This document shows, piece after piece, positions 23,577 to 57,155 of a DNA stretch of 64,000 nt (position 1 is the first letter of the stretch; each line of letters begins with the position of its first letter). The notes under the pieces were generated by a model, which was not told the DNA's origin, did not search any database, and saw nothing but the letters and a program-made list of their open reading frames with translations. A program made the translations under genes and the position numbers. Origin of the DNA: an uncultured Gemmatimonadaceae bacterium (GTDB lineage Bacteria; Gemmatimonadota; Gemmatimonadetes; Gemmatimonadales; GWC2-71-9); contig CAZKYO010000003.1 of assembly GCA_964557115.1 (NCBI GenBank), positions 64,438-128,437 of the forward strand, in the 5' to 3' direction.

Positions 23577-26015
23577 TCAGGGCGCGCCCGGGTCCGGGTC
23601 GGCAGGAACCGCGGGGCCAAGGCTCTTTCCCACCGCGTGCAGCAGCTCCTCGGTCGTAAACGGCTTGGCGAGGACGCACTCGCCGGGCCGTTCACCGCCG
23701 CGCAGCGCCACCTCGTCCTCGGTGTAGCCGGAGATGTACACGACGGCGATCGCGGGATCGAGTCCCCGCGCGCGGCGGGCCAGCTCGGCCCCGCCCATCC
23801 TCGGCATCACCATGTCGGTGACCAGCAGGCGAAACCCGCCGCGCGAGAGGGCGGCCAGGGCCTCGACGCCGTCGCCCGCCAGCTCCACCTCGCATCCGAT
23901 GCGGCGCAGCAACCGCGACACCACGTCGCGCACCTCCGGGTCGTCATCGACCACGAGCACGGGCCCGCCCACCGGACTGCCCGGCGTCACGAGGCCGCCG
24001 ACGGCTCCCGGGACGCCGTCCAGCTCGGGACGGGCGTGGACCACGGGCAGGTACAGCTGCACCGCGGTGCCGTCCTGCCCGGTCTCGGCCACGAACAGGT
24101 GCCCGCCCGCCTGCCGGACGATGCCATAGGCCGTCGACAGCCCCAGTCCGGAGCCGCGCCCCGTCGGCTTGGTGGTGAAGAAGGGCTCGAACGCGTGCTC
24201 GGCCACCTCGGGCGCCATGCCGGTGCCGCTGTCGCGGACCTCGACCCGCGCCCACGTGCCCGGCGTCACCTCGCCGGTCGGGTGCCGAAGCGGGCGCTGG
24301 AGTTCGAGCACGTCCGTCGTGATGGTCAGCTCGCCGCCCGCGGGCATCGCGTCGCGCGCGTTGAGGACCAGGTTCATCAGCGCCTGCTCGAGCATGAGGC
24401 GGTCACCCTCGACCGTTGCCGGCGTGTCGCCGGCGACGACGCGGGCGACGATGCCGGCCGGCAGCGCGGAGCGGGCGAGCTCGATCACCCCTTCCACCAT
24501 CCGGTCGAGGCGGCAGGGCTCGCGCCGCAACGGTTGGCGCCGCGAGAAGGCGAGCAGCCTCCCCGTGAGCTCGCGGCCGCGCTCGACCGCCTCGCGGATG
24601 GCGTGGAGGTCCCTTGCGTGGCCCAGCCGCACGGCCGGATCGGCGAGCAGCTCGTCGGCGGTGCCGAGCACCACGGTGAGCATGTTGTTGAAGTCATGGG
24701 CCACGCCGCTGGCGAGGCGACCCGCGGCATCGAGCCGCTGCGCGTGCCGCACCTGCTGCTCGAGTTCCCGCGCCTCGGTGACATCGCGCACCGACAGCGC
24801 CACGCCGTCGCCCGCCCGCACCGCCTGCAGACGGATCCACCGGGGGCGGGTGCCCGGCCGCGTCCCCCCGGTGCTGAACTCCTCCTCGAACGGGACGCCG
24901 GTGGCGAGGACCGCGCGGTAGCGATCGAGGAAGCCCATTTCCTGCGCGACCGGGAAGGCGTCGGCGAGCAGTGCCCATTGCAGCACGGCGCGCGGCTGCC
25001 CCGTGAGTCGTTCGGCCTGGCTGTTCACGTCGAGGAGGCGAAAGTCGGCGACGGTGCCGTCGGCGTGGCGCTCCGGGCCGAGGAGGAAGAACGCGTCGAG
25101 CGACCCGTCGCGCGCGGCACGCAGCAGTTCCTCCGAGCGCGACAGCTCTGCCTCCCGGGCGCGCAGCATCGCGTTCGCCTCGCGCAAGGCGGCGCCCGCG
25201 TGGCGCGCCCGTTCGGCGCTCACCAGCGCCACGGCGACGAGCGTCGCGGTGCCGAGCGCGAACAGCACGCCGAGGAGCAGCTGGCCGCCGTTGGAGATCG
25301 GATGCACCGGCGTGCACACCAGGGTGACGAACACGTAGCTGCCGAGCCCGATCCAGCCGGCCAGCACCCACAACTGCATCCCCAGCGGGCGATCCTCGGC
25401 CGGGAGCCGCGACCAGCCGCGATGAATCAGGCCGATCGCGAGCAGCAGGATCGCGGTCCCGGTCGGGACGGCGATGCCGGCGAGGAAGTTCGCGTCCCGG
25501 ATGCCCGACGCCCACACGGTGTAGGCGAACAGGATCGCCCAGCTGATCGCCGCGACTCCCGCCGCCAGCGCGCCCGGCAGCAGGCGACCGGCCCGGGTCG
25601 GTCGATCGAGCCCGAGGAGCGACAGCGCACCGCCCAGGCAGACGAAGCACGTGAGCGTCGTGGTCGCCGGGCGGGCGCCGCTCGTGATGCGGTCCACGTA
25701 CTCCTGCGAGAAGGGATGGAGCCGCAGCACCCCGGTGCTGAAGTGGTAGAAGTGCTCGAGGAGCAGCAGGGCGGCAAGCACCATCACCACCACGCCCAGC
25801 CAGAACGCCACGCGGCGCGAGACGAGCAGCCCGACCGCCACGAAGGCGATCAGGTGGACGGTTGCCGGCACCATCGCCGGGAAGCCGGGGATGATCGTGA
25901 ACAGGGCCTCGCGCTGGAGGGCCCAGCCGAGCGCGACCGCCGCCGCGACAAGCAGCGGTATCAGCGAGTAGAGCGTCAGGCGCCGGGGACTGCGGGGCGC
26001 CGCGCCGTCAGGCAT
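23577..26015 (-). CDS. hybrid sensor histidine kinase / response regulator with multi-TM N-terminal domain
   Basis: 812 aa. About 270 aa with roughly 8 hydrophobic segments, then a PAS-like region. H-box SGVAHDFNNML, HATPase (GSGLGLS), C-terminal receiver (VLVVDDDPE...LLVTDMVMP). Confidence 0.9.
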   Translation of the reverse strand: MPDGAAPRSPRRLTLYSLIPLLVAAAVALGWALQREALFTIIPGFPAMVPATVHLIAFVAVGLLVSRRVAFWLGVVVMVLAALLLLEHFYHFSTGVLRLHPFSQEYVDRITSGARPATTTLTCFVCLGGALSLLGLDRPTRAGRLLPGALAAGVAAISWAILFAYTVWASGIRDANFLAGIAVPTGTAILLLAIGLIHRGWSRLPAEDRPLGMQLWVLAGWIGLGSYVFVTLVCTPVHPISNGGQLLLGVLFALGTATLVAVALVSAERARHAGAALREANAMLRAREAELSRSEELLRAARDGSLDAFFLLGPERHADGTVADFRLLDVNSQAERLTGQPRAVLQWALLADAFPVAQEMGFLDRYRAVLATGVPFEEEFSTGGTRPGTRPRWIRLQAVRAGDGVALSVRDVTEARELEQQVRHAQRLDAAGRLASGVAHDFNNMLTVVLGTADELLADPAVRLGHARDLHAIREAVERGRELTGRLLAFSRRQPLRREPCRLDRMVEGVIELARSALPAGIVARVVAGDTPATVEGDRLMLEQALMNLVLNARDAMPAGGELTITTDVLELQRPLRHPTGEVTPGTWARVEVRDSGTGMAPEVAEHAFEPFFTTKPTGRGSGLGLSTAYGIVRQAGGHLFVAETGQDGTAVQLYLPVVHARPELDGVPGAVGGLVTPGSPVGGPVLVVDDDPEVRDVVSRLLRRIGCEVELAGDGVEALAALSRGGFRLLVTDMVMPRMGGAELARRARGLDPAIAVVYISGYTEDEVALRGGERPGECVLAKPFTTEELLHAVGKSLGPAVPADPDPGAP

Positions 26016-26082
26016 GCCGGGTCCGGGGCTGGGGCCGCGAGGACTCCCGCCGCCGTGGCCGGCGCGCCGGGAGGTGCCACCA

Positions 26083-26165
26083 TGCCCAAGGAGGGAGTCG
26101 AACCCTCACGGGGTTGCCCCCTGCGGATTTTGAGTCCGCTGCGTCTGCCATTCCGCCACTCGGGC
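26083..26165 (-). tRNA. tRNA-Leu (anticodon CAA), 83 nt, CCA not encoded
   Basis: Folded by hand: GCCCGAG TG GCGGAATGGCAGACGC A GCGGA CTCAAAA TCCGC AGGGGGCAACCCCGT GAGGG TTCGACT CCCTC CTTGGGC A. Acceptor 7 bp (one GU), U33-CAA-A37, long variable arm, GTTCGA T-loop. Confidence 0.9.
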
Positions 26166-26209
26166 CTTGCCGAAGGATGCAGGAAGGGCTCGGCGGCGGC
26201 AAGCGGTGA

Positions 26210-26320
26210 GGCGAATGGTGAATGGTGAATGGGGAATGGTGAATGGGGAGCGACGGATCGTCACCACGGGGCTGGCGCCCGATAGCCCTCCCCTTCACCA
26301 TTCACCATTCACCATTCACC
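26210..26320. repeat. heptad hairpin element A: (GGNGAAT)x6 / 37-nt loop / (NTTCACC)x4-5
   Basis: Left arm: GGCGAAT GGTGAAT GGTGAAT GGGGAAT GGTGAAT GGGGAG. Right arm: CTCCC CTTCACC ATTCACC ATTCACC ATTCACC. Hand pairing gives about 33 bp with one bulge and one mismatch (26217-26250 with 26288-26320). Confidence 0.9.
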
Positions 26321-26330
26321 AGGCCCCGCC

Positions 26331-26882
26331 GTGATCTCGCCCCGCCCGTTCCACCCCTGGCACGACATCCCCAGCGGCGCCGAGCCGCCATCGCTGGTCA
26401 CCGCGGTGATCGAGATCCCCGCCAACGAGCGCAACAAGTACGAGCTCGACAAGGACCTCGGCGTCTTCCGGCTCGACCGGCTCCTGCACAGCTCGGTGCA
26501 CTACCCGGGTGACTACGGCTTCATCCCCCGCACCCTCGCCGAGGACCACGACCCGCTCGACGTCCTGGTGATCATGACCGAGCCGGTCTTCACCGGCTGC
26601 CTCGTCGAGGTCCGCCCGCTCGGCGTCTTCAACCTCATCGACCGCGGCGAGAACGACGAGAAGATCATCGCCGTGCCGACCCACGACCCGTTCGCCGAGC
26701 AGATGCGCGGACTGGGCGACATCCCGCGCCACGCCCTGCGGGAGATCGAGCACTTCTTCCAGGTCTACAAGGATCTCGAGGGGACCCGCACCGAGAGCCG
26801 CGGCTTCGACGATCGCGAGGCGGCGGAGCGGTTGATCGTCGCGTGCATGCAGCGCTACGAGGAGGAGTTCGGCAGCAGGTGA
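26331..26882 (+). CDS. ppa: inorganic pyrophosphatase (family I)
   Basis: 183 aa, GTG start. EIPANERNKYELD, YPGDYGFIPRTL, DPLDVLV, DEKIIAV. Confidence 0.95.
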   Translation: MISPRPFHPWHDIPSGAEPPSLVTAVIEIPANERNKYELDKDLGVFRLDRLLHSSVHYPGDYGFIPRTLAEDHDPLDVLVIMTEPVFTGCLVEVRPLGVFNLIDRGENDEKIIAVPTHDPFAEQMRGLGDIPRHALREIEHFFQVYKDLEGTRTESRGFDDREAAERLIVACMQRYEEEFGSR

Positions 26883-26928
26883 AGGTTGGAGGGTGAAGGG
26901 GAACCGCACCGAGCCCGGTTCACCCCTC
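26878..26928. repeat. short heptad hairpin element G between convergent ppa and hypothetical gene (bidirectional terminator candidate)
   Basis: GGTGAAG GTTGGAG GGTGAAG GGGAACC / 11-nt loop / GGTTCACCCCTC. The ppa TGA (26880-26882) lies in the first unit. The opposing gene's TGA (26920-26922) lies in the right arm. Confidence 0.7.
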
Positions 26929-27435
26929 GCCGATCTCCGTTCGCAGGCTCACCGGCGGACGGAGCACTTCGCTCCAGATGAGGGCCTGGCGAAGGCCCGG
27001 ACGCGCCACGGACGACGCCGGCGCGGCGGCCTTCGCCTTCCGGATCTTCGCGTCGAAGGCGGCGTGGTCCGCTGGTCGCCACTCGCGGTTGCGCGCCTCC
27101 GCGAGGTCCACCCGCCGCCGCACCAGCGCCTCGGCCTGGTCGTCGAAGTCCACCGGCGCCTGCGACGGCGCCGGGACCGGCAACGAACGCGTCACCACGA
27201 CCGGCGCCACCTCCACCGATTCGCGCCCCCGCTCGTCCAGGTCGCGGGCCTGCTCCAGCTGGCGCCGCATCTCGGCGAGCAGGTCCTCGTAGCTCCCCGG
27301 CTCGGCGCGCGGCCGCGGCACCGGCAACGGACGCTGCGGCCGGTTGCGCTGCTGCTGCGAGGCCTTCCCCGCCTTGGCGACCAGCGAGCCGATCGCCCAG
27401 ACGACCAGCAGCACGAAGATCGCGCCGGGCTCCAT
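26920..27435 (-). CDS. hypothetical single-pass membrane protein (YqfB-position protein downstream of floA)
   Basis: 171 aa. N-terminal TM MEPGAIFVLLVVWAIGSLV followed by charged/Pro-rich sequence. It starts 6 nt after the floA stop. No family recognised. Confidence 0.6.
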   Translation of the reverse strand: MEPGAIFVLLVVWAIGSLVAKAGKASQQQRNRPQRPLPVPRPRAEPGSYEDLLAEMRRQLEQARDLDERGRESVEVAPVVVTRSLPVPAPSQAPVDFDDQAEALVRRRVDLAEARNREWRPADHAAFDAKIRKAKAAAPASSVARPGLRQALIWSEVLRPPVSLRTEIGEG

Positions 27436-27441
27436 CGCGGC

Positions 27442-28440
27442 TCAGCCCTGCTCGGGTGCGCGCGGCTGCTCGCCCGAAGCGATCGCCTTGCGCATCTCGG
27501 TGTCGGCCTCGACGTTGCGGAACTTCTGGTAGTCCATCACGCCGAGGTTGCCGTCGCGGAACGCCTCGGCCATCGCGAGCGGGATCGCCGCCTCGGCCGC
27601 GATCAGCTTGGCGCGCTGGTTCTGGGCCTCCGCCTTGTACTCCTGCTCCATCGCCACTGCGAGCGCCCGGCGCTCCTCCGCCTTGGCCTGCGCGATCCGC
27701 TTGTCGGCCTCGGCCTGGTCGGTCTGCAGCTCGGCGCCGATGTTCTTGCCGACGTCGACGTCGGCAATGTCGATCGAGAGGATCTCGAATGCCGTGCCGG
27801 CGTCGAGGCCCTTGGCCAGCACCGTCTTGGAGATCATGTCGGGGTTCTCGAGCACCGCCTTGTGGCTCGCCGCGGAGCCGATGGTGCTCACGATCCCCTC
27901 GCCGACGCGCGCCAGGATCGTCTCCTCGCCGGCGCCGCCGACCAGCCGGTCGACGTTGGCGCGCACCGTCACCCGCGCCATCGCGAGCAGCTGGATGCCG
28001 TCCTTCGCCATCGCCGCCACCTTCGGCGTCGTGATCACCTTCGGGTTCACGCTCACCTGCACGGCCTCGAGCACGTCGCGCCCGGCCAGGTCGATCGCGG
28101 TCGCCTGCTTGAACGAGAGCGCGATGCCGGCCTTGTCGGCCGAGATCAGCGAGTTGACCACCCGCGCGACGTTGCCGCCGGACAGGTAGTGCGCCTCGAG
28201 GTCGTTGATCCGCAGCATCAGCCCCGCCTTGGTGGCGGTGATGAGCGGGTCGACGATGCGGGCCGGGTTGACCTTCCGGAGCCGCATCCCCATGAGCGTG
28301 ATGAACGAGACGCGCACGCCGCTCGCGGCCGCGCGGATCCAGAGGCCGATCGGGATGAACCGGAAGAAGAGCATCCCGAAGAGGAGGATGAGGAAGCCCA
28401 GCACGAGCAGCGTGGCGAGCGGGGCGGTGTCCTGGTTCAT
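27442..28440 (-). CDS. floA: flotillin-like protein FloA (YqfA/UPF0365)
   Basis: 332 aa, N-terminal TM. Diagnostic stretches: [54 protein letters not shown]. Confidence 0.9.
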
Positions 28441-28456
28441 GACGGTTCCGGCTCCT

Positions 28457-29815
28457 TCAGTCCGTTGTCGGTGGCACGGGGCGCGCAGCGCGCACCACGT
28501 GACGATAGCCCTCGGCGCGGAGCACCACGACGGCGGCGCCGGCCTTCACGAATTCGCCCTCGGTGACCACGTCCACCCGCTCGCCCTCCACCTCGGCGGT
28601 GCCCGAGGGACGCAGGTCGGTGAGCGCGGTGCCGCCCTTCCCCACCAGCTCGTCGCGTGACGGCGCCGAGAGGTAGCCCTCGCCGCGGTGCACGCTGTCG
28701 CGCAGCAGCAGGCCGCTCCAGCGGGTGCTGTTCGGCAGGTGCCGGATCCAGGCGAAGAACACCGCGCCGGTGATCACCAGCGACGCCCCGAGGATGCCCA
28801 TCGCGGTGGCGACGTCGCCGCCGGTCGGCGCCGATCCCAGCAGCGCCATCACCATCGACCCTCCGATCAGCAGCAGGCCGACGATCCCCGCCACGCCGAA
28901 GCCCGGCAGCACGAGCACCTCGACCGCGAGCGCGATCACGCCGAGACCGAGCATGAGCACTTCCTCCCAGCCGGCGAGGCCGAGCAAGAACGAGGAGCCG
29001 AAGAAGAGACCCAGTGACGCGAGCGAGACCAACCCGCCGATCCCGAACGCCCCCGCCTTGATCTCGAAGAGCAGGCCGAGGAGGCCGATCGAGAGGAGCA
29101 GCGGCGCGACGACCGGGTTGGTGACGAACCGCACCACGAGCTCGGCCCAGTTCGGCGAGATTGAGCGCACCGTCGCCCCGGGGAGTCCCGACACCGACAG
29201 CAGCGCATCGAGCGAGCCGGCCTCGCCGTCGGCGATGCCGTTGGCGATCGCCTGGGACGCCGTGAGCGACAGCAGCTTGCCCGCCGGGGCAAGTGCCGGG
29301 ATGTCGATCGACTCGTCCACCATCGCCTCGGCGAGTGCCGGGTTGCGGCCGCGCAGCTCCGCCAGCGAGCGGAATTCCGCGCGCATCGCGCTGACCATCT
29401 TCTCGGAGGCCTTGGTGCCGCTGCCATCCACCGGGGTGGCGGCGCCGATCGCGCCGCCGGGGGCCACGTAGATCTTCTCCGCCGAGAGGGCGATCATCGC
29501 CCCGGCGCTCCAGGCGCGCGGATTGACCCAGGCCACCACCGGCACCCGCGAGGCGCGCACCGCGTCGGTGATCCGCTCGGCGGCGTCGATGCGCCCGCCG
29601 GGGGTGTCGATGTCGAGGATGACGAGCGCGGCCCCGCGCTCGGCGGCCTGCAAGAGGGCGCGCTCGACGTAGGGCGCCAGGCCGTTCTCAATCGTGCCGC
29701 TCACCGCGACGCGCACGACCTCCTGGGCCCGCGCGGCCACGGGCACCGCGACGAGCAGGGCGGCAAGGAACACGGGGAGCCGCCAGGACCTCGACCGCAC
29801 CGGGACGTTTTCCAT
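28457..29815 (-). CDS. NfeD-family membrane-bound ClpP-class serine protease
   Basis: 452 aa. Signal peptide, ClpP-like domain ([16 protein letters not shown]...SAGAMIAL), about 5 TM segments, and a C-terminal NfeD OB-fold ([28 protein letters not shown]). Confidence 0.85.
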
Positions 29816-29852
29816 CCCGGAAATCTAGCGGGAGCGGCCCCCAGCCGCCGGA

Positions 29853-30344
29853 TTACGGCCGACGCGCCCCGACCGGCGGGCCGTCGCGGCGCTGGTCCTG
29901 CAGGTCGCGCACCCGCTGCAACAGGTTGTCGCGCAAGCGGAGGAACTGGGCACGCTGCACCGGGGTGAGGATCGGTGTCAGGTCACGCATCTCGGACTGG
30001 AACGACTGCGCGTAGGCCACCCGGTTCTGCAACAGCCCATCGACCAGGCGCGTCAGCGAGTCGCTGTCGGCGGCGACGCCGGGACGCAGCTGGCCCTCGA
30101 GGGCCCGGCGGAAGTCGCGCTCCTGGTCCTCGAGCTCGCGTCGCTTGCCGCCCCAGTCGGTCAGCACGCCACCGACCTTGTCCGCCTGCTCCGCCGAGAG
30201 GCCAAGGTCCTGGCGCAGGCGCGTCATGAACACCTGCTCGATCCGCTCGCGGACCGGCGCTGGCCGGCCGGCAACCTGGGCCACGAGCAGCGACGGGGCA
30301 CTGAGCAGTGCGGCCAGCAGCACCGCGCGCGACGTGGTCTTCAT
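29853..30344 (-). CDS. periplasmic Spy/CpxP-family (LTXXQ-motif) protein
   Basis: 163 aa. Signal peptide ending AQ. Two LTXXQ-type motifs (LSAEQ, LTPVQ) in a helical, charged protein. Confidence 0.7.
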   Translation of the reverse strand: MKTTSRAVLLAALLSAPSLLVAQVAGRPAPVRERIEQVFMTRLRQDLGLSAEQADKVGGVLTDWGGKRRELEDQERDFRRALEGQLRPGVAADSDSLTRLVDGLLQNRVAYAQSFQSEMRDLTPILTPVQRAQFLRLRDNLLQRVRDLQDQRRDGPPVGARRP

Positions 30345-30862
30345 GATTCCTCCACTGATTGCAGCAGCTGTTCGAGTTCCGTGTCGGTCAGGTCGCCGAG
30401 CCGCGGCACCGAGCCCAGCGGCTCGACCTCGTCCGGCGCGATCGAGGCAAGCACCACCTCGAGTTCCGAGTCCAGCAGGGCGTCGAGTTCCGGCAGCATC
30501 GTCGGTGCACGCGCGGTCCCCACCGCAACCGCCTCCGGTGCACTCCCTGGCCGCCAGACGATCGCCGTCACCACGACGGCCGCCGCGGCGGCGAGGCCGA
30601 CCACCCAGCGCATCACTGTGCCTCGCCGGGAGGCGATCGGGACGACCCTCACTTCGTCGCGCAGCCGCGCCAGCACCACGGAGGCGATGCGCTCGACGTC
30701 GAGCCCCGACGCTCCCGCCGCACGGGCCAGCACATCCCCCACCAGCGCCAGCTCGCGACGGCAGTCGTCACAGGTGGCCAGGTGACCCTGTTCCTCGGCG
30801 GTCCAGGTGCCGGCGCCGTGCGCGACGTCGGGGATCCGATCGGTGAGATGTCCGTCCATCAT
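30341..30862 (-). CDS. zinc-binding anti-sigma factor (ZAS-type), single-pass membrane
   Basis: 173 aa from ATG 30862, with an ATGA overlap with the sigma stop. HxxxCxxC in GHLATCDDCRREL. TM segment WVVGLAAAAAVVVTAIVW. The track ORF to 31174 is over-extended. Confidence 0.7.
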   Translation of the reverse strand: MMDGHLTDRIPDVAHGAGTWTAEEQGHLATCDDCRRELALVGDVLARAAGASGLDVERIASVVLARLRDEVRVVPIASRRGTVMRWVVGLAAAAAVVVTAIVWRPGSAPEAVAVGTARAPTMLPELDALLDSELEVVLASIAPDEVEPLGSVPRLGDLTDTELEQLLQSVEES

Positions 30863-31398
30863 TCGAGTCGCTCCCGCAGTCGCCGGACTGCGTGGTGGTA
30901 GTGCACCCGTGCCGCACCCTCGGTCGTCTCCAGGGCCGCCGCGACCTCGCGGTAGTCGAGCCCCTGCTCCACCCGGAGGAGGAAGACCTCCCGCTGCATC
31001 GGGGAGAGCGCCGCCAGCCCCTCCCGGATCCTGCCGGCGGTCTCGTCCGCGATCACCTCGGCGGCGGGATCGGCATGGTCCACCCGGTCGCCGGGGCCCA
31101 ATTCGACGTAGACCCGACCACCACCCCGCCGGTACCGGTCGCGCACGAGGTTCATCGCGATCCGGAACAGCCACCCTCGAAACGGGGCGTCGCCGCGCCA
31201 GCCGTCGAGCCCACGAAACGCCCGGAAAAACGTCTCCTGCACCAGGTCGTCACAGTCCGAGATTGCCCCGCGAGACACCAGGAACCGCCCCAGGGGCACC
31301 GCATGCCGCCGCACGAGGGCGGCGGCGGCGGCTTCGTCGCCGCCCCGCCACGCAGCCACGAGCTGCGCGTCGGTCGGATGGTCCGCGGCGACGGTCAT
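30859..31398 (-). CDS. ECF (group IV) RNA polymerase sigma factor
   Basis: 179 aa. Region 2 (DDLVQETFFRAFRGL) and region 4 HTH (QREVFLLRVEQGLDYREVAAAL). Confidence 0.9.
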   Translation of the reverse strand: MTVAADHPTDAQLVAAWRGGDEAAAAALVRRHAVPLGRFLVSRGAISDCDDLVQETFFRAFRGLDGWRGDAPFRGWLFRIAMNLVRDRYRRGGGRVYVELGPGDRVDHADPAAEVIADETAGRIREGLAALSPMQREVFLLRVEQGLDYREVAAALETTEGAARVHYHHAVRRLRERLE

Positions 31399-31437
31399 CG
31401 ATGCAGAGGACGGGGCATGGGCAGATATGTTAAAGCC

Positions 31438-31547
31438 GGAGAACGGAGAACAGAGAACGGAGAACCGAGGGCTGGGCGTTGAATACCGGACGACACCACG
31501 ATCGCCGTTCCCCTCCTCGGTTCTCTGTCCTCAGTTCTCCGTTCTCG
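31438..31547. repeat. heptad hairpin element D: (GGAGAAC)x4 / 44-nt loop / (GTTCTCN)x4
   Basis: Left arm: GGAGAAC GGAGAAC AGAGAAC GGAGAAC CGAGG. Right arm: CCTCG GTTCTCT GTCCTCA GTTCTCC GTTCTCG. Hand pairing gives about 30 of 33 bp (31439-31470 with 31515-31546). Confidence 0.9.
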
Positions 31548-31548
31548 G

Positions 31549-31666
31549 ATTGTTGTTAACAATTCCCACAACACATCGTCTACATTGGTGATAAGACGTG
31601 TGATTTCAGGTGAATTCTGAGTAGTTCACATGGTTTCCACAGCCGCTTCCACCGGACTTTCAACGC
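31549..31666 (+). promoter_or_regulatory. AT-rich island upstream of the GDPD gene with palindromes (probable promoter/operator region)
   Basis: Visibly AT-rich relative to its surroundings. Perfect palindrome TTGTTAACAA (31553-31562). Inverted repeat GTGAA-N10-TTCAC (31610-31629), which contains one GGTGAAT unit, 38 nt upstream of the ATG. Confidence 0.4.
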
Positions 31667-32326
31667 ATGTCGACGACCCAGCTCATCGCCCACCGCGGGG
31701 TAACCAGCCGTGGCATCGAGAATTCCCTCCCCGCCTTCCGGGCGGCTGTGGAAAACACCGCGATCCCGATCGACGGGGTTGAGCTCGATGTCCACACGAC
31801 CGCGGATGGAAAAACCGTCGTTCACCACGACCCGACCCTGCCCTCCGGTCGGAGGATCAATGAGACGGACCTCCAGGGCGTCCGCCAGGAGCGGCTCGCC
31901 GACGGGTCGATGCTCCCGACGCTCCGCGAGGCGCTCGAGGCGATGCCGGGGCTCCGGGTGTACGTGGAGGCGAAGGGCATCACCCCTGCCGGCGACCGCG
32001 ACCTGCTGGGCTCGCTGACCGACCGTCGCTGGCTGCCGCACGTCCAGGTCCACGGGTTCGACCACCGGGTCGTCGCCCGGCTCCTCGCGCAGGCCCCGGG
32101 ACTCCGTGGCGGCGTGTTGTCGAGCAGCTATCCGGTCGATCCGATCGCCCAGGTCACCGCGGCCGGTGCGAGCACCCTCTGGCAGGAAGTCGGGATGGTC
32201 GACGCGGAGCTGGTCCGGCGCTGCCGGGAGGCGGGGATTGCGTTGATCGCCTGGACCGTGAGGACCGCTGACGAGCGGGACCGGTTGGTGGAGCTGGGGG
32301 TGGATGGGGTCTGCGCGGACCTCTAG
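31667..32326 (+). CDS. glycerophosphodiester phosphodiesterase family protein
   Basis: 219 aa. LIAHRG, GVELDVHTTADGKTVVHHD, and a C-terminal GVDGVCAD-type motif. Confidence 0.85.
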   Translation: MSTTQLIAHRGVTSRGIENSLPAFRAAVENTAIPIDGVELDVHTTADGKTVVHHDPTLPSGRRINETDLQGVRQERLADGSMLPTLREALEAMPGLRVYVEAKGITPAGDRDLLGSLTDRRWLPHVQVHGFDHRVVARLLAQAPGLRGGVLSSSYPVDPIAQVTAAGASTLWQEVGMVDAELVRRCREAGIALIAWTVRTADERDRLVELGVDGVCADL

Positions 32327-32417
32327 AGGGTCGCGAATCGAGACCCGAGCTTCGGGGAAGCAGAAAGGGCCGACCCTGATCGGATCGGCCCCCTCGATTC
32401 GCGAATCTCCAGTCTCG
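32326..32417. repeat. heptad-type element F with nested hairpin between convergent GDPD and rpmA (bidirectional terminator candidate)
   Basis: Outer inverted repeat cgcgaatcgag (32332-32342) / ctcgattcgcg (32393-32403). Right arm periodic: CCCCTCG ATTCGCG AATCTCC AGTCTCG. Inner 7-bp hairpin gggccga / tcggccc (32367-32391). Confidence 0.7.
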
Positions 32418-32431
32418 ATCCTTGCCCGCCG

Positions 32432-32686
32432 TCAGGCGGGGTACACCGAGACCTTCATCCGGTTCTTGTCCTTGTGCTCGAACTTCACGACCCCGTCGAT
32501 GTGGGCGTGGAGCGAGTCGTCCTTGGCCAGGAAGACGTTCTTGCCGGGATGGAACTTGGTCCCGCGCTGCTTGACGAGGATCGCGCCCGCGGTCACCCGC
32601 TCGCCGCCGAAGTGCTTGACGCCGAGGTACTGCGGATTGGAATCGCGACCGTTGCGGCTGGAGCCGACGCCCTTCTTGTGTGCCAT
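32432..32686 (-). CDS. rpmA: 50S ribosomal protein L27
   Basis: 84 aa. [24 protein letters not shown]. Confidence 0.97.
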
Positions 32687-32695
32687 GTCTCTACC

Positions 32696-33013
32696 TCACC
32701 CGACCACGACGTCGGTGATCTTGACCTCGGTGTGCTTCTGCCGATGGCCGGTCTTGCGGCGGTAGTTCTTCCGCCGCTTGAACTTGAACACGTAGATCTT
32801 GTCGTCCTTGCCGTGGCCGACCACCTCGGCGGTGACCTTGGCGCCGGCGACGTTGGGCGTCCCCGCGGTGATCGTGTCGCCGCTGGACGTCAGCAGGACC
32901 TCGTCGAAGGTCAGGGCGTCGCCCGCCTGCTTCCCCTCCATGTAGGGGAGCTGCAGGGTGACGCCCTTCTCCGCGCGGAACTGCTTGCCGAGGGCCTTGA
33001 AGATCGCGTACAT
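32696..33013 (-). CDS. rplU: 50S ribosomal protein L21
   Basis: 105 aa. MYAIFKALGKQFRAEKG...FKFKRRKNYRRKTGHRQ. Confidence 0.97.
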   Translation of the reverse strand: MYAIFKALGKQFRAEKGVTLQLPYMEGKQAGDALTFDEVLLTSSGDTITAGTPNVAGAKVTAEVVGHGKDDKIYVFKFKRRKNYRRKTGHRQKHTEVKITDVVVG

Positions 33014-33054
33014 GTCTCTCTCGCCTCTTGACCGTAATACGGAACCGTAGCCCC

Positions 33055-33062
33055 CAAAAATA
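33055..33062 (-). promoter_or_regulatory. TATTTTTG: Bacteroidetes-type -7 promoter motif (TAnnTTTG) upstream of rplU
   Basis: Minus strand: cTTGcc, 20 nt, TATTTTTG, ending 42 nt upstream of the rplU ATG. This matches the TTTG-N19-21-TAnnTTTG architecture described for Bacteroidetes sigma-A promoters. Confidence 0.4.
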
Positions 33063-33098
33063 GGCAGGGAGCCGATTTAGGGCAAGCCGGGGAAGATC

Positions 33099-33181
33099 GG
33101 AGACTAGCGATTGGAGAATGGCGAGTCGAGGGGACCAGCTGGGCCTGTTCTCGATTCTCCAATCTCGATTCGCCAACCTCG
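33099..33181. repeat. heptad hairpin element E (variant unit GGAGAAT/ATTCTCC) between rng and rplU
   Basis: Left arm: GGAGACT AGCGATT GGAGAAT GGCGAGT CGAGGGG. Loop 13 nt. Right arm: GTTCTCG ATTCTCC AATCTCG ATTCGCC AACCTCG. Pairing is imperfect; the 7-nt periodicity is clear. Confidence 0.7.
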
Positions 33182-33185
33182 GCCC

Positions 33186-34814
33186 CTAGGCTACCGCGTA
33201 CAGCTCCGTCACGTCCCGCCCTGCCGGCCTGGAGACCAGCCGGAACTCGTCGAGCCGAAGCATCGGGTCGTCCCGGAGTTCCAGCTCGACCTCGGCCTCC
33301 CGGCCCAGCGCCTTGACCAGCTTCGGCTCTTCCTCGAGGAGGTAGATCGCCACCTCGGGATGGATCCGGACCGCCAGCTTCCGCTCCTTCTTCTCCAGCC
33401 CCATCCGGCGCAACGCCCGCTCCAGCCTCCGGGTGACCACCTCGGGGGAGAAAACCCGGCCGGTGCCGTGGCAGGTGGGGCAGTCCCGGGTCATCGAGGC
33501 CCAGAGTGACGCCCGGACACGCTGCCGGGTCATTTCCACGAGTCCCAGCTCGGAGACGGCGAAGGCCCGGGTCCGGGCCCGGTCGCGACCCAGATGGGTG
33601 CGCAGTTCCTGGAGGACCCGCTCGCGGTTGCCGCGGGACTCCATGTCGATGAAGTCCACGACGATGATGCCGCCGACATCGCGCAGCCGCACTTGCCGGG
33701 CGATCTCGCGCGCCGCCTCGATGTTGGTCCGGAGGATCGTCTTCTCGGGGTCGCGCTTGCCGGTGTAGCGGCCGGTGTTGACGTCGACCGACACCAGCGC
33801 CTCGGTGGGCTGGATGATGACGTAGCCGCCGGTCGGCAGGTCGACGCGCTGCTTGAAGAGGTCACGGATCTCCGCCTCGATCTTGAAGTGATCGAAGAGC
33901 GGCTGGTCGTCCTCGTAGAAGTGCACCCGGGAGAGCAGCTCGGGGTCGATCTGCTCGAGGTACTGGGTGATCTCGTTCAGGACCTCGCGGGAGTCGACCC
34001 AGAGGCCGTCCACCTTGGCGCTGAAGACGTCGCGGACCAGCGCCCGGGTGAGCGAGGCCTCGCGATGGAGCAGCGCCGGCGCCTTGCGGACGTAGTGCTG
34101 CTTGCGCTTGACCTTGCGCCAGATGGCGAGCAGCGACTCGACCTCCCGGCGGAAGTGCTCCTCGGTGACGCCCTCGGCGACGGTGCGGACGATCATCCCG
34201 CCGGCGTCCGCCGGCAGGTGCTTCGCCACCATCTCGCGGAGCTTCGCGCGCTGCTCGCGGTTCTCGATCTTGCGGGAGACGCCGACCTTGGAGGCGTACG
34301 GCATGTACACCAGGAAACGCCCGGCCAGCGAGATCTGCGCGGTGACCCGCGAGCCCTTGGTGGAGATCGGCTCCTTGGTCACCTGCACCGGCAGCGTCTG
34401 GCCCTTCTTGAGCAGCTCGCCGATGTCGGGCACCGCCCGGCGGGCACCGACCTCGCGCCGGCCACCCTCGCCGCGGCGCTTCGAGGCCGCAGGCGCCTGC
34501 GCCGGTGTGGCGCCTTCCTCCCCCTCGTCGTCGCCTTCTGGCGCATCGGGGATGTCGGCCGGCTCCTCCGGCTCCTCCTCGTCCTCGGGCTCGAGGAGGT
34601 CGGAGGCGTGCAGGAAGGCGGACTTCTCGAGCCCGATGTCGACGAACGCGGCCTGGATCCCGGGGAGGACCGCGTCCACCCGGCCCAGGTAGATGTCGCC
34701 TACGCTACGGCGATTGTCGGGGCGATCGACGAGCAGCTCGACCAGGCGGTCGTCCTCGAGGATCGCGACCCGCGTCTCGCGCGGGGTGCTGGAGATCAGG
34801 ATTTCGCGCTTCAC
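33186..34814 (-). CDS. rng: ribonuclease E/G family endoribonuclease (RNase G-size)
   Basis: 542 aa, GTG start. S1 domain (GDIYLGRVDAVLPGIQAAFVDIG) and catalytic core (GGIIVVDFIDM). An acidic insert is present. Confidence 0.9.
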   Translation of the reverse strand: MKREILISSTPRETRVAILEDDRLVELLVDRPDNRRSVGDIYLGRVDAVLPGIQAAFVDIGLEKSAFLHASDLLEPEDEEEPEEPADIPDAPEGDDEGEEGATPAQAPAASKRRGEGGRREVGARRAVPDIGELLKKGQTLPVQVTKEPISTKGSRVTAQISLAGRFLVYMPYASKVGVSRKIENREQRAKLREMVAKHLPADAGGMIVRTVAEGVTEEHFRREVESLLAIWRKVKRKQHYVRKAPALLHREASLTRALVRDVFSAKVDGLWVDSREVLNEITQYLEQIDPELLSRVHFYEDDQPLFDHFKIEAEIRDLFKQRVDLPTGGYVIIQPTEALVSVDVNTGRYTGKRDPEKTILRTNIEAAREIARQVRLRDVGGIIVVDFIDMESRGNRERVLQELRTHLGRDRARTRAFAVSELGLVEMTRQRVRASLWASMTRDCPTCHGTGRVFSPEVVTRRLERALRRMGLEKKERKLAVRIHPEVAIYLLEEEPKLVKALGREAEVELELRDDPMLRLDEFRLVSRPAGRDVTELYAVA

Positions 34815-35275
34815 GGAGGATCCGAACGGGCGTCAACCCTGGGAAGGGTCTCGGGCCCGATGGCAGGAGGGTTCTGGGTCGCCGCCGAACGGTCGGGGCG
34901 ATTGGCCGCTGCCGGGGGACTCCAGCGCCCGTCCTCGGACGGGCTGGCCTCGCCGACGAGAGCGCCGTCGATCCGGGAACGGGCCGGTCGGCACGGGGCG
35001 CGCGCAAGCACTCGGTGCTGCGCGGGTCCGATGACGAGCCGGGGTTGGCCGGACGATGGGGCTGTCGAGCGGAAATGGGGCGAGGCGAACCGGAGCGGGT
35101 CCCGAAGCGGCAGGGAACCTGCTTTAGGAACGATGCCACCGGCCGGGAGGCTTGGATCCTCCCGACGACACGGCCTGCAATCACCAGCACGACTCCGGGT
35201 GGCATGGTGGAAAGCTATGATCCAAGTGGACTTACGGCAATGTCACCGGACCGATACCGATCCGGGCCAGCTTCC

Positions 35276-35283
35276 TATATTTC
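35276..35283 (+). promoter_or_regulatory. TATATTTC: TAnnTTT-type -10/-7-like motif upstream of the lipoprotein gene
   Basis: CCTATATTTC (35274-35283) is identical to the 10-mer upstream of secG. It lies 32 nt upstream of GTG 35315. Confidence 0.3.
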
Positions 35284-35314
35284 CCGGCAACCCCTCCTCG
35301 CGGAGTCCCCGTCG

Positions 35315-37147
35315 GTGCTGAACCTCCCTGCCCCCAGGCGCCGCCTCGCGTCGCTGCTTCCGGTGCTTTTCGCCGCCCTCGCGGTGGCCTGCGGCAAGGA
35401 CACCGGCACCGAACCGCCGGGACCGCCGAATTCCCTGACGATCGCCGCCGGCAACAACCAGCAGGTCACCGTCGGTGCGGCCGCCCCGGTCGCCCCCAGC
35501 GTCCGGGTGACCGATGCCAACGGCCGCGGCGTGCCGGGGATCTCGGTCCGGTTCGACGTCATGTCCGGCGGCGGCAGCGTCACCGGCGACTCGGTAGTGA
35601 CCGGCTCCGACGGGAGCGCCACGGTCACCGAGTGGCGAATGGGACCCACCCCCGGCGCCAACCAGCTGCGGGCGCAGGCGCTCGGCTACTCGCTGTTCCA
35701 GACCGTCACGGCCACGGCGAAGCCCGGGGCGCCCTCGTCGCTCCAGATCGTCAGCGGCGGCGCCAACCTCAACGCCGTCGTCTCCCAGGAAGTCATCCCG
35801 CGTCCCTCCGTCCGGGTCCGCGACGCCTTCGGCAACCCGGTCCCGGATGCGATCGTGACCTGGTCGGTGACCTCCGGTGGCGGCGCGATCGTCGGCGCGA
35901 ACCAGTCCACGACCGACGCCGAGGGACGCGCGACGATCGGTGGCTGGAAGCTCGGCGATGACCAGGGGACGAACACGCTGCAGGCGAGGACCGCCAACGG
36001 CCTGGCGACCACCTTCACCGGGATGGCGATCGGCACGCCGAGTTCCGTGGCGGCGATCTCGCCGACCACCCAGACCGGCTACATCTCGTTCGCGGTGCCG
36101 AAGACCGCTCGGGTCCGCGTCCTCGGCGCCGACAACGGCCCGGTGGTCGGCCTGCCGGTGATCTTTCGCAAGGTGAGCGGTGGCGGCACGATCACCGGCG
36201 ACACCACCACGACCGACATCAACGGCGACGCGGCGCTGGGCGACTGGCGGCTCGGCGTCGACGGCGCTTCCACGATCGAGGCGATCGTCCCGGGCTATCC
36301 CGGCGGCGCGGTCCAGTTCTCCGCGACCGGGACGGCCACGCCGTTCACGATCGACGTGCGCTTCCTGACCGAGACGCCGGCCGACCTGCGCGACGCCTTC
36401 ATCACCGCGGCACTCCGATGGATGACGGTGATCACCGGCGACCTGCCGAACCAGCCGCTGATCCTCGCCGCAGGCGCCTGCCAGACCGGGCTCTCGCCGG
36501 CGCTCAACGAGACGATCGACGACATGGTCATCTGGGCGTCGATCATCCCGATCGACGGCGTCGGCAACATCCTCGGCCAGGCCGGTCCGTGCGTCGAGCG
36601 GACCGGCAGCGAACTCACTGCCGTCGGCGTCATGCAGTTCGACATCGCCGACGCGCTCAACCTGAGCCAGCATTCGCAATTCAAGGATGTCGTGCTCCAC
36701 GAGATGGGCCACGTCCTCGGCTTCCTCTCGCGACGATTCCAGGACAAGGCGATCGCGACGGGAATCGGCACCAACGATCCCGTCTACACCGGCGCCCAGG
36801 CCGTCGCGGCCTGGCCCTCGCTCGGCATCGCCTACGGCGGCATGCCGATCCCGCTGGAAAACCTCTACGGACAGGGCACACGCGACAGTCACTGGCGCGA
36901 GAGCGTCCTCGGCAACGAGCTGATGACCGGGATCATCGCCTCCGCCGGCGTCACGATGCCCCTCAGCGTGATCTCCGTCGCCGCGATGGCCGACCTGGGC
37001 TACACGGTCAACATGGCCTCCGCCGATCCGTGGATCCCCGCGCTGCTCGCCGCCGCCCCGCAGGCCGGCGCGACACCGATCAACGAGGACGTCCGCGAGG
37101 CGAGGTTCCAGGTGCTTCCGAACGGGACGGTCGTGCCGAAGCCGTAG
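35315..37147 (+). CDS. lipoprotein with three bacterial Ig-like (Big) repeats and a C-terminal leishmanolysin-like (M8) zinc metallopeptidase domain
   Basis: Lipobox LLPVLFAALAVAC-GKD. Three repeats of about 90 aa (..SVRVTDANGRGVPG..V.F.V.SGGGS..G; ..SVRVRDAFGNPVPD..; ..RVRVLGADNGPVVG..). HEMGHVLGF plus downstream DSHWRESVLGNELMTG, typical of M8. The track ORF from 34505 is over-extended; ATG 35240 is an alternative start. Confidence 0.8.
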   Translation: MLNLPAPRRRLASLLPVLFAALAVACGKDTGTEPPGPPNSLTIAAGNNQQVTVGAAAPVAPSVRVTDANGRGVPGISVRFDVMSGGGSVTGDSVVTGSDGSATVTEWRMGPTPGANQLRAQALGYSLFQTVTATAKPGAPSSLQIVSGGANLNAVVSQEVIPRPSVRVRDAFGNPVPDAIVTWSVTSGGGAIVGANQSTTDAEGRATIGGWKLGDDQGTNTLQARTANGLATTFTGMAIGTPSSVAAISPTTQTGYISFAVPKTARVRVLGADNGPVVGLPVIFRKVSGGGTITGDTTTTDINGDAALGDWRLGVDGASTIEAIVPGYPGGAVQFSATGTATPFTIDVRFLTETPADLRDAFITAALRWMTVITGDLPNQPLILAAGACQTGLSPALNETIDDMVIWASIIPIDGVGNILGQAGPCVERTGSELTAVGVMQFDIADALNLSQHSQFKDVVLHEMGHVLGFLSRRFQDKAIATGIGTNDPVYTGAQAVAAWPSLGIAYGGMPIPLENLYGQGTRDSHWRESVLGNELMTGIIASAGVTMPLSVISVAAMADLGYTVNMASADPWIPALLAAAPQAGATPINEDVREARFQVLPNGTVVPKP

Positions 37148-37176
37148 CCCCGCCCTCCCGCGAAGCGGGAGCGGCG
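37148..37176. repeat. 29-nt GC-rich hairpin repeat, copy R1 (between convergent lipoprotein gene and recQ)
   Basis: ccccgccctcccgcgaagcgggagcggcg is identical to 38692-38720. It contains the stem ctcccgc/gcgggag with a GAA loop and begins 1 nt after the TAG at 37145-37147. Confidence 0.85.
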
Positions 37177-37291
37177 CCTGCCCTGAGCGGAGTCGCAGGG
37201 GGGCCTCCGCGGTCGCCTCCGCGCCGACCATGGTCAGGCAGGGCGAGCGAGGAGATCCCGCCACCCTCGTGCGGCGCACTCGGGGGCGGGA

Positions 37292-38641: not shown

Positions 38642-38691
38642 CGCCGGGTGCGGGGCCGAGGGCGAAACCGATGCGATGGGGAGCGGATTCA

Positions 38692-38720
38692 CCCCGCCCT
38701 CCCGCGAAGCGGGAGCGGCG
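38692..38720. repeat. 29-nt GC-rich hairpin repeat, copy R2 (upstream of recQ)
   Basis: Identical 29-mer in the same orientation as R1. Here the stem extends to about 15 bp (accccgccctcccgc gaa gcgggagcggcggggt). Confidence 0.85.
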
Positions 38721-38838
38721 GGGTCTCCGAGGTCGACACGCTCCGACCGGTGCCCAGCAAGCGTCGGGGCGATCACAACCTCGGAGGCCCCGCCGCCCGC
38801 GCGCTGCGCGCGCAGGGGCGGGGACAGCAGTCGGCGGG

Positions 38839-39015
38839 CTACGGGCTCGCGGGCGGGGGATCTCCCCCTCGCCGCTCGATCACCCGCATTGCCAGCGCGA
38901 TCGCAAGCACGGCGATCGCCACCCAGTTGAGGAGGCGGTTGTCGAGCGACACCGCGAGCACCGCGAGGACGATCCCGGTCGCCGCGAAGGCGAGCTTCAG
39001 GCGGCGGATCCTCAC
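38839..39015 (-). CDS. small hypothetical two-TM membrane protein (58 aa), absent from the ORF track
   Basis: My translation from GTG 39015: VRIRRLKLAFAATGIVLAVLAVSLDNRLLNWVAIAVLAIALAMRVIERRGGDPPPASP, stop TAG 38839-38841. The start makes a GTGA overlap with the enoyl-CoA hydratase stop, as at many confirmed junctions here. Confidence 0.4.
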   Translation of the reverse strand: MRIRRLKLAFAATGIVLAVLAVSLDNRLLNWVAIAVLAIALAMRVIERRGGDPPPASP

Positions 39016-39770: not shown

Positions 39771-40123
39771 CGGGTCGCCTCCTTCACCCGCCTGGCCAGC
39801 TTGCGCGGCACCTCGATCTCCATCCGGAGCAGCGCGGTCGAGAAGACCTTCCCCTGCGCGTCGGTCTTGAGGGACATCGTGCCGCCCCCGTCGAGCGCGC
39901 CGTGGAGCATGAAGTTCAGCGCGTGCAGGTTGGGCAGTTCGTAGCGGTCGACCGAACTGACCATGCCGCGGAAATGCCGCGCGACCCGCTTCGCGGTCAC
40001 CTCGCGGCGGAGCAGCTCGTAGTGCTCGGGGTCGAGCGCGATCAGGCCGACGTTGGCGGCGTCGCCCTTGTCGCCGCTGCGGGCGTGGGCGAGCCAGCGG
40101 AGCTGGATCGGGGTGGTCGCCAT
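39767..40123 (-). CDS. small AtuA-associated protein (corresponds to the C-terminal domain of long AtuA; DUF4387-like)
   Basis: 118 aa. AHARSGDKGD.ANVGLIA motif. 1-nt TGATG overlap with the DUF1446 gene and ATGA overlap with the next gene. Assignment rests on context and remembered family features. Confidence 0.55.
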   Translation of the reverse strand: MATTPIQLRWLAHARSGDKGDAANVGLIALDPEHYELLRREVTAKRVARHFRGMVSSVDRYELPNLHALNFMLHGALDGGGTMSLKTDAQGKVFSTALLRMEIEVPRKLARRVKEATR

Positions 40124-57149: not shown

Positions 57150-57155
57150 AAGACT

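Follow-up and report, generated by a model that had tools for sequence, protein, structure and literature searches.

How can a family of hairpins hold together when its members have in common a 7-nt period, but not the unit that is repeated? The question is raised by a stretch of 64,000 nucleotides from contig CAZKYO010000003.1 of an uncultured Gemmatimonadaceae bacterium (the whole stretch is referred to as the window; G+C content 71%), in which seven elements, here called A to G, lie between genes. These are heptanucleotide simple sequence repeat (SSR) hairpins, i.e. intergenic stem-loops whose arms are formed by a tandem 7-nt unit and by its reverse complement. As described below, it is the hairpin and the 7-nt period that are kept at orthologous sites in related genomes, and not the sequence of the unit. 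Their origin, growth and decay take place at the site itself, in some cases around terminator-like hairpins that were there before.

Direct reading of the sequence confirmed that all seven loci are present where an earlier note on this DNA had placed them. Element A (26210-26320) has a left arm at about 26210-26251 with the units GGCGAAT GGTGAAT GGTGAAT GGGGAAT GGTGAAT GGGGAGC, a loop at about 26252-26289 and a right arm of (ATTCACC)n at 26290-26320, giving five to six units on the left and four on the right. In element D (31438-31547) the arms are (GGAGAAC)n at 31438-31470 and (GTTCTCC)n at 31515-31547, and element B (57077-57149) consists of (GGNGAAT)3, a 20-nt loop and (ATTCACC/ATTCACG)4. 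Element C (58041-58176) carries GGTGAGC GGTGAAT GGTGAAG GGTGAAG on the left, a loop of about 70 nt, and CTTCACC GTTCACC CTTCCCC CTTCACC CTTTACC on the right. All four read (G-rich)n-loop-(C-rich)n, and for each of them Tandem Repeats Finder returned a pair of period-7 arrays (A, 26213-26246 and 26294-26321; D, 31437-31469 and 31505-31546; B, 57080-57099 and 57120-57150; C, 58040-58070 and 58140-58176).

The elements were folded as RNA and each was compared with 200 dinucleotide-preserving shuffles. Not one of the 200 shuffles folded as well as element A (minimum free energy −80 kcal/mol; z −7.9), D (z −7.2), C (z −5.0) or B (z −4.6). The arms of A are 90-94% complementary in three registers offset by 7 nt, which bears out the suggestion that such stems can pair in several registers. 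The other three elements are less regular. Element F (32326-32417) folds marginally (z −2.9) and carries the degenerate heptads GCGAATC GAGACCC ... TCGATTC GCGAATC TCCAGTC around a core hairpin at 32367-32392 (GGGCCGACC...GGTCGGCCC), which is plain GC-rich sequence. The fold of element E (33099-33181; GGAGACT AGCGATT GGAGAAT GGCGAGT ... TTCTCGA TTCTCCA ATCTCGA TTCGCCA) is weak (z −1.5), and Tandem Repeats Finder assigned it a period of 14. Element G (26878-26928) is a degenerate and mostly one-sided array (GGTGAAG GTTGGAG GGTGAAG GGGAACC ... GGTTCAC CCCTCGC) whose fold, taken alone, is indistinguishable from chance (z −0.06). Because the sites of E, F and G are occupied by clear heptad hairpins in relatives, E and F are regarded as degenerate members, and G is probably a decayed remnant. 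Of the family of seven that had been proposed, four copies (A-D, z −4.6 to −7.9) are hence solid and convincing, two are degenerate, and the seventh, G, is not significant by itself.

Enrichment over shuffled controls, which had been proposed as a check, was seen within the window, where GGNGAAYGGNGAAY with at most one mismatch was matched 23 times against 1.1 expected, a number reached by none of 100 shuffles. Period-7 arrays numbered seven in the window against 0.3 in shuffles, and a scan of the window at periods 8-12 returned no array; the enrichment is therefore specific to period 7.

Faulty assembly was raised as a possibility when the elements were first noticed. B and C are identical (100%) in nine contigs that were assembled independently from as many sequencing runs, as are E and F in three further contigs, and an assembly artefact is thereby excluded. 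One independently assembled contig (L123, corresponding to window 32761-31441) stops precisely where element D has its outer edge (31441), which suggests that short-read assemblies tend to break at heptad arrays. Related species differ at the same sites in the number as well as in the sequence of the units. Polymorphism in unit number, which had also been proposed as a check, was not seen across nine sample assemblies of the strain (consensus assemblies, 100% identical overall). At this consensus level a hypermutable contingency locus is not supported.

RNase G homologues of 80-82% identity are assigned to Gemmatimonadales by NCBI, which places the window in an uncultured bacterium of that order. 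Syntenic loci from six related genomes were collected by exact-protein look-ups, which succeeded with ribosomal proteins L21 and L27, RNase G and the cyclase-family protein encoded next to element B. One of these genomes, L122, is about 90% identical to the window at the nucleotide level; RNase G is 90% identical in L128, 89% in L125, 85% in L126 and 82% in L129 and L130. The relatives that bear hairpins contain 17 period-7 arrays against 0.4 in shuffles, two relatives contain none, and the orthologous elements fold strongly (z −4.1 to −9.4). Site D shows most directly what is conserved. The window carries GGAGAAC/GTTCTCC in its two arms, L122 carries CGAGGAC/GTCCTCG and L125 carries (GGAGGAC)7/GTCCTCC, so that the unit has changed in both arms although the flanks are about 90-95% identical. 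The outermost GGAGAAC unit on the left is common to four genomes, and no heptads are found at this site in L126, L129 and L130. In L128 (13330-13440) another long palindrome, TGTCACCCCGAG...CTCGGGGTGACA, takes the place of the inner heptads; it has its own inner GC-rich hairpin and sits between remnants of the heptad arms.

At site F, an orthologous core hairpin, GGGCCGGC...GCCGGCCC, was found in every genome read except L130, where the spacer is 30 nt. The units that flank it are GAATCGA-like in the window and L122, GGGCGAA/TTCGCCC in L128, GGTCGAT/ATCGACC in L125 and AGTAGTC-like in L129, while L126 has the bare core hairpin followed by the tail TTCTTTCTT, an arrangement that resembles a classical bidirectional terminator. 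Site E of L128 has (GGGGCGA)9 in its left arm and about four complementary units in its right arm; L126, L129 and L130 have no heptads there. In L125 alone, a gene of 131 amino acids with a lipoprotein-like signal start (11749-12144) lies between the genes for RNase G and rplU and splits the E-site array. At site G, where the window has only a degenerate array, the heptad hairpin of L125 is clear, with (GAGTCCT)n...(AGGACTC)n enclosing a GC-rich core (z −7.4). Site A is devoid of a heptad hairpin in L125 and L126 and holds (GAAGTCG-like)5 with a weak partner in L129. A more distant genome, L269 (ppa 60% identical), has (GCTATCG)4...(CGATAGC)3, an unrelated unit, at the same position upstream of ppa, and three heptad elements within 2.5 kb; its elements at 64-169 and 2450-2476 include (GGGGGAC)n...(GTCCCTC)n.

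The claim that period and inverted symmetry are retained rather than sequence thus holds at orthologous sites, where the unit is exchanged in both arms. The copy number changes independently in each arm, as the nine against about four units at site E of L128 show. The consensus GGNGAAY, offered for all seven copies, fits A to D loosely and fits neither E nor F. It is rejected as a family consensus and describes a trend local to the window, as relatives carry the unrelated units GGGGCGA, GGAGGAC, GGTCGAT, GAGTCCT, GACGATA and GAAGTCG.

One way to obtain several copies per genome is mobility, i.e. a MITE (a transposable element of the miniature inverted-repeat type) or an element like repetitive extragenic palindromic sequences and bacterial interspersed mosaic elements (REP/BIME), moved by a REP-associated tyrosine transposase (RAYT) or another transposase and inserting into intergenic hairpins. 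The presence of multiple copies within 64 kb, arms inverted like terminal inverted repeats, and the reuse of units within one genome (GGTGAAT at A, B, C and G in the window; GGGGCGA at sites E, F and D in L128) would agree with this. However, A, B and C align in their arms only; their loops and flanks are unrelated, and direct reading found no target-site duplications. Heptads lie outside the conserved orthologous core at F, which a single insertion cannot achieve, orthologous sites hold different units, and the copies have no GTAG or CGTC head and match no Rfam family. Nor was any transposase found among the genes scanned next to the heptad copies within the window. The different units at orthologous sites, together with the lack of heptads there in other relatives, argue for turnover in place and not for mobile copies, and a mobile origin is very improbable.

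The units themselves bear on a second proposal, namely that the elements act through G-quadruplexes, as put forward for GGGAATC repeats of Xanthomonas and GGGGAYT repeats of Nostoc. The left arms are indeed G-rich, arrays such as GGGGCGA of L128 could form G-quadruplexes, and GGGAATC oligonucleotides do so in vitro (PMC4692102). The units of the window (GGTGAAT, GGAGAAC) have GG and not GGG, however, and direct reading found no arm with four G-runs of three or more; units of relatives such as GAGTCCT, GACGATA and GCTATCG are incapable of forming the structure, and a fully complementary arm competes for pairing. Because the window units lack G3 tracts and relatives carry GAGTCCT and GACGATA, G-quadruplex formation cannot be the common denominator, and as an explanation of the elements it is barely credible. 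The mobile-element, G-quadruplex and artefact readings are regarded as essentially excluded.

The architecture extends well beyond Gemmatimonadota. A scan for exact (GGTGAAT)3, with one genome per species, returned at least 119 loci. Among the matches listed are Acidobacteriota, Bacteroidota (Chitinophagaceae, Saprospiraceae), Mesorhizobium, Planctomycetota, Gemmatimonadales, Verrucomicrobiota, Chloroflexota, Geobacter, Campylobacterales, cyanobacteria and others. In 33 of the 119 loci among the matches listed, a second array complementary to the first is present at a distance of up to 300 nt, and direct reading showed the same architecture. These cross-phylum hairpins often fill the whole spacer from a stop codon to the next start codon, and at some loci they are nested arrays of two unit types. 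Nested hairpins in Chitinophagaceae and Thiotrichaceae (L014, 3127-3305; L088, 5630-5778; L072, 7138-7340) have outer arms of (GTGAGAC)n or (GGTGACT)n and inner arms of (AGTGAAT/GGTGAAT)n, mirrored on the other side; such two-unit hairpins imply stepwise growth accompanied by mutation of the unit.

Viral contigs carry the same hairpins, and some phage contigs have three to five of them in 7-14 kb. Exact three-unit arrays in these contigs (L140-L246) were counted for six units: GAGTGAT (44), GGTGAAT (39), GTGGAAT (11), GGAGAAC (8), GGTAGAT (3) and GGGAATC (3). Among the heptads of identical composition (GAGTGAT, GGTGAAT, GTGGAAT and GGTAGAT) the counts differ 15-fold. Units containing GTGA seem to be favoured in viral contigs, six units being too few to establish this, and the idea that GGTGAAT is a special unit was rejected, as it is common there but not unique. 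In a ppa-based metagenome scan, which reached relatives of at most 71% identity, any period-7 array was present in only 6 of 80 loci. Heptad richness is hence a property of particular genomes and strongly genome-specific, in agreement with earlier surveys of long SSRs. Taken together, these hairpins form a widespread and poorly understood class of inverted heptanucleotide repeats.

Each inverted pair was scored for polarity, i.e. for whether it reads (G-rich)n...(C-rich)n or the reverse. Among the matches listed, the G-rich, purine-rich arm lies 5′ in 42 of 43 cross-phylum pairs, and likewise among the matches listed in all ten cross-phylum pairs whose units are unrelated to the query. The G-rich arm is 5′ in 47 of 49, 10 of 11 and 1 of 1 pairs from viral contigs (58 of 61 pairs) and in every pair from Gemmatimonadales. 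Overall, about 100 of 104 scored pairs (genome loci among the matches listed plus viral contigs) obey the rule. A literature search found no paper stating G-rich-arm-5′ polarity as a general rule.

Three possible causes of the polarity were considered. Stop codons in all three reading frames were rejected as a cause, as GGAGAAC, GGAGGAC, GGGGCGA and GGGAATC contain no stop triplet. A break-repair origin, in which the arms would be ‘fused telomeres’, is disfavoured, given that the arrays at F flank a conserved core hairpin and not a junction. Mimicry of Shine-Dalgarno and anti-Shine-Dalgarno sequences (GGUGA and UCACC) is not general across units.

The position relative to genes was surveyed for 189 arrays in other phyla with crude gene maps based on open reading frames, so that the counts are rough. 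Arrays that are G-rich on the sense strand begin a median of 2 nt past the upstream stop codon, whereas 45 of the 54 that are C-rich on the sense strand stand beside the start of the downstream gene. Sites between convergent genes outnumber those between divergent ones (45 vs 28).

The same preference is seen in the window, where gene context was taken from Pfam hits and open reading frames. A stop codon lies within 0-17 nt of the start of five of the seven elements. Three of these five stand between convergent genes: G between the stops of ppa and of a gene for a 171-aa protein (26920-27435, minus strand), F between the stops of the glycerophosphodiester phosphodiesterase (GDPD) gene (31667-32326, plus) and rpmA (32432-32686, minus), and B between those of an amidohydrolase gene (ending at 57060, plus) and the cyclase-family gene (57156-57974, minus). 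Each of the three clear convergent junctions of the window thus holds an element. The other two follow an upstream gene in tandem: E begins 5 nt past the stop of the RNase G gene (33186-34814, minus) and lies 86 nt upstream of rplU (32696-33013, minus), and C shares bases with the stop of a beta-lactamase-family gene (58172 onward, minus) and stands about 67 nt upstream of position 57974, where the cyclase gene starts. Elements A and D do not follow a stop codon and lie in divergent promoter regions, A between a tRNA-Leu gene (26083-26165, minus) and ppa (26331-26882, plus), D between an extracytoplasmic function (ECF) sigma factor gene (30859-31398, minus) and the GDPD gene. The intergenic placement and the contact with start and stop codons that had been described are confirmed by C, by G, whose first GGTGAAG unit contains the TGA stop of ppa, and by A, which ends 10 nt 5′ of the ppa GTG.

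Polarity and position are also what the main rival explanation has to account for. It holds that the elements are a neutral or selfish by-product of a 7-nt slippage bias and palindrome-correcting template switching, and that they expand, without function, until coding or promoter constraint stops them. This would explain why the arrays are patchy among close relatives and exchange their units quickly, why they occupy every intergenic context including divergent promoter regions and extend through the spacer as far as the start and stop codons, why the arms are of unequal length and why decayed copies (G, E, F) exist; the lack of a regulatory role in Xanthomonas (PMC4692102) fits as well. Symmetric slippage and template-switch models do not, however, predict a near-absolute polarity (about 100 of 104 pairs, genome loci being those among the matches listed), and the over-representation of convergent sites, the occupation of every clear convergent junction in the window and the joint change of both arms likewise speak against it. 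We consider a purely neutral origin possible but doubtful.

A position at gene ends invites comparison with transcription terminators. Those with a U-tract are not enriched at 24-40 kb of the window (six, compared with 3.8 in shuffles) and none was found at the site of an element; the ones found at 24000-40000 lie inside coding regions. The genome seems to do without canonical intrinsic terminators, and a T-rich tail was seen only at the L126 ortholog of the F core. Rfam had been named as a place where a catalogued family might be recognised. It gave no match at the heptad elements: in gathering mode only the tRNA passes, and in E-value mode both regions returned only generic microRNA-hairpin models far below threshold.

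In view of this, we favour a reading in which the SSR hairpins originate in place and act as RNA stem-loops at gene ends, a package to which we give somewhat better than an even chance. The arrays would gain and lose 7-nt steps by slippage, independently in each arm, and expansion would often begin where an existing hairpin, for instance the core of a bidirectional terminator, has its base. Variant units would then spread through both arms, with complementarity kept by selection or by arm-to-arm copying. With both arms periodic, any register would pair, so that the expansion of either arm could lengthen the stem. In the RNA, the element would fold into a long stem-loop directly behind the stop codon of the upstream gene, its 5′ arm rich in purines and G and its 3′ arm in pyrimidines. 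Without a U-tract, this stem-loop would terminate the transcript or shield its 3′ end, or would keep cistrons apart, working like a REP/BIME hairpin. If the G-rich arm is made first, the C-rich arm would be paired as soon as it is made and would not offer a single-stranded loading site for Rho; the order would also place a weak pyrimidine-RNA:DNA hybrid at the 3′ arm.

Several points weigh against this package. Its descriptive and evolutionary part is much more secure than its functional part, in which we only infer a role at the RNA level. Elements A and D, as well as L269 at 1049-1122, lie between divergent genes by likely promoters with the same architecture and polarity, and hence a role as terminator or 3′ stabiliser cannot cover every copy. 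Direct reading found no T-run, and therefore no U-tract, after the stems of A to E. Close relatives lack elements at orthologous sites (L126, L130; site A in L125), so that none of the elements is essential. Copying from one arm to the other, and not selection, could be what maintains complementarity. The polarity was scored on 43 pairs among 309 arrays (cross-phylum loci, among the matches listed), many arrays having no detected partner. Finally, no gene-regulatory role or other function has been identified for the arrays of Xanthomonas (PMC4692102).

A role at the level of DNA ranks next after the neutral by-product. Phased arrays would bind a protein in steps of 6-7 nt, for instance a cold-shock-domain or nucleoid protein, or would form slipped or cruciform DNA that insulates promoters. 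A fixed period with variable sequence suggests a ruler, and A, D and L269 at 1049-1122 lie directly upstream of divergent core promoters. Precedents exist in CspB, which occupies heptamer repeats with one protein per heptamer (according to PMC4679880), and in the recO promoter of Nostoc, where deletion of heptamers altered the action of NtcA and LexA (bioRxiv 10.1101/2022.06.06.494920). But the absence of a shared motif across sites and genomes makes sequence-specific binding unlikely, loops as long as 16-71 nt speak against the extrusion of a cruciform, most copies stand at gene 3′ ends and not at promoters, and no candidate protein was identified in this analysis. This explanation appears quite unlikely, and stem-loops that originate in place and act at the RNA level remain the reading we prefer.

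A bolder extension of the preferred reading is that all heptad hairpins form a single, very widespread and scarcely studied intergenic class of bacteria and phages, built in place by a conserved process of 7-nt steps and subject to a universal purine- and G-rich-5′ rule on both strands. We consider this unlikely. Were it true, the polarity rule would imply a conserved machine that reads or shapes the hairpins, the candidates being RNA polymerase and Rho at terminators without U-tract or a protein with a 7-nt footprint, and the functional code would lie in period and polarity and not in the sequence.

Some features of the surrounding sequence deserve mention. Upstream of rplU (33014-33098, minus strand), relatives retain a block (GGCTTGCCCTAAATCGGCTCCCTGCCTATTTTTGGGGGCTACGGTTCCG...) also where they lack element E. 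It looks like a TTGCC-N17-TATTTT promoter followed by an rplU leader, and a search of the block with Rfam gave no match to the L21 leader. Upstream of the GDPD gene, positions 31548-31666 form an AT-rich block, unusual at the G+C content of the window, with the palindrome TTGTTAACAA and the sequence ATCACCAATGTAGAC. Most of this block is preserved in L122, L125 and L128, and it may represent an operator or promoter. Several starts are preceded at 7-12 nt by a hexamer resembling TTTAAC, GTTAAC or TTTAGC and lack a Shine-Dalgarno sequence; examples are the ECF sigma factor gene (window 31399-31420) and ppa in L126 (16775-16790) and L269 (1120-1141). This suggests leaderless mRNAs with a −10-like element at these genes, in which case the heptad arms at divergent sites would occupy the −35 and upstream region.

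The elements touch on an old question, namely why 7 nt is the period of the commonest long SSRs of prokaryotes, known as such since 2007. Here, it is hairpin and period that are conserved rather than the unit or the potential to form G-quadruplexes, and one polarity rule spans Gemmatimonadota, Mesorhizobium, Bacteroidota, Acidobacteriota, Planctomycetota and phages. Testable predictions on the arm order of the elements and on RNA 3′ ends follow, and the findings are relevant to the annotation of GC-rich genomes that lack classical terminators.

Among known systems, intrinsic bidirectional terminators resemble the elements in that their stems are GC-rich, lie between convergent genes and have the G-rich side in 5′ position. 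The elements differ from them in the lack of a U-tract, in much longer stems (16-33 bp or more), in large loops and in the location of some copies between divergent genes. REP and BIME sequences, found in enterobacteria and pseudomonads, are credited with stabilising mRNA 3′ ends and with modulating termination. The likeness is one of proposed function, both being abundant extragenic stem-loops at gene 3′ ends or between cistrons and often in inverted pairs. According to PMC3733652, a REP is a conserved imperfect palindrome of 20-40 nt with a GTAG or CGTC head that is mobilised by RAYT transposases. The analogy, which the earlier note had drawn, fails as to membership: conserved sequence and, by direct reading, the GTAG/CGTC head are missing, the arms are internally periodic, the elements arise in place and only a period is in common. 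MITEs differ by their target-site duplications, which are lacking here; furthermore, the internal sequences are unrelated and the arrays at F flank an orthologous core hairpin.

Tandem heptamers have been described in several bacteria. The short tandemly repeated repetitive (STRR) sequences of cyanobacteria have the units CCCCAGT, TTGGTCA and CAACAGT; units and host differ, and only the 7-nt period is in common. The TAACTGA direct repeats of Beggiatoaceae, cyanobacteria and Bacteroidetes (MacGregor 2015, PMC4679880) were found in 169 direct sets against one indirect set, in forward orientation upstream of start codons. As with the present elements, their 7-nt tandem arrays are intergenic, adjoin start codons and have a scattered phylogeny, and a post-transcriptional role has been proposed for them; in contrast to the present elements, they have one fixed unit in direct arrays and are not hairpins. 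The TTTTGAA heptamers of Nostoc are likewise direct arrays and not hairpins (bioRxiv 10.1101/2022.06.06.494920).

More generally, the long SSRs of prokaryotes are dominated by the class with heptanucleotide units (Mrazek et al. 2007, PNAS, in the summaries of PMC4679880 and PMC4692102). In these summaries such SSRs are intergenic and sporadic across genomes, and 7-nt polymerase slippage is proposed as their origin. The present arrays share these properties, with at least three head-to-tail units far above chance in intergenic and sporadic positions. The reports as summarised there concern direct arrays, without inverted pairing, polarity or conservation of hairpins.

The closest parallel is found in Xanthomonas campestris and X. 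axonopodis, whose genomes hold 186 and 183 arrays of the heptamer GGGAATC, respectively (Rehm et al. 2015, PLoS One, PMC4692102). Most of these arrays are paired, 70 and 75 pairs per genome lying ‘in convergent orientation’, and their potential to form stem-loops was noted (PMC4692102). The suggestion that a family of inverted heptad arrays was undescribed is therefore wrong. The Xanthomonas arrays are about 90% intergenic, lie on average 28 nt past the upstream open reading frame, are rare between divergent genes (7-8%), vary in length and sequence between the two species at the same sites and are mostly transcribed (PMC4692102). Shared with these pairs are the 7-nt unit, arrays of typically about four units, the (G-rich)n...(C-rich)n order on one strand, the intergenic location near an upstream stop and the variation of units and lengths at the same sites in related species; the units GAGAATC and GCGAATC of E and F are even one base off GGGAATC. 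The host is different (Gemmatimonadota vs Gammaproteobacteria), and so is the number of units per genome, several unrelated ones here as against a single dominant one. The Xanthomonas repeats were framed as G-quadruplex formers (PMC4692102); unlike GGGAATC and GGGANTN arrays, the arms in the window lack four G3 runs by direct reading, so that this framing does not apply to them. Some copies here are moreover built around a conserved terminator-like core, unlike those described from Xanthomonas. Inverted heptad hairpins were thus first noted in Xanthomonas and are found here in Gemmatimonadota with units that do not form G-quadruplexes. The element itself is not new in kind; new are its growth in place around terminator cores and the polarity rule across phyla. 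Beyond what was described for Xanthomonas, compensatory replacement of the unit at orthologous sites identifies the hairpin as the conserved property here.

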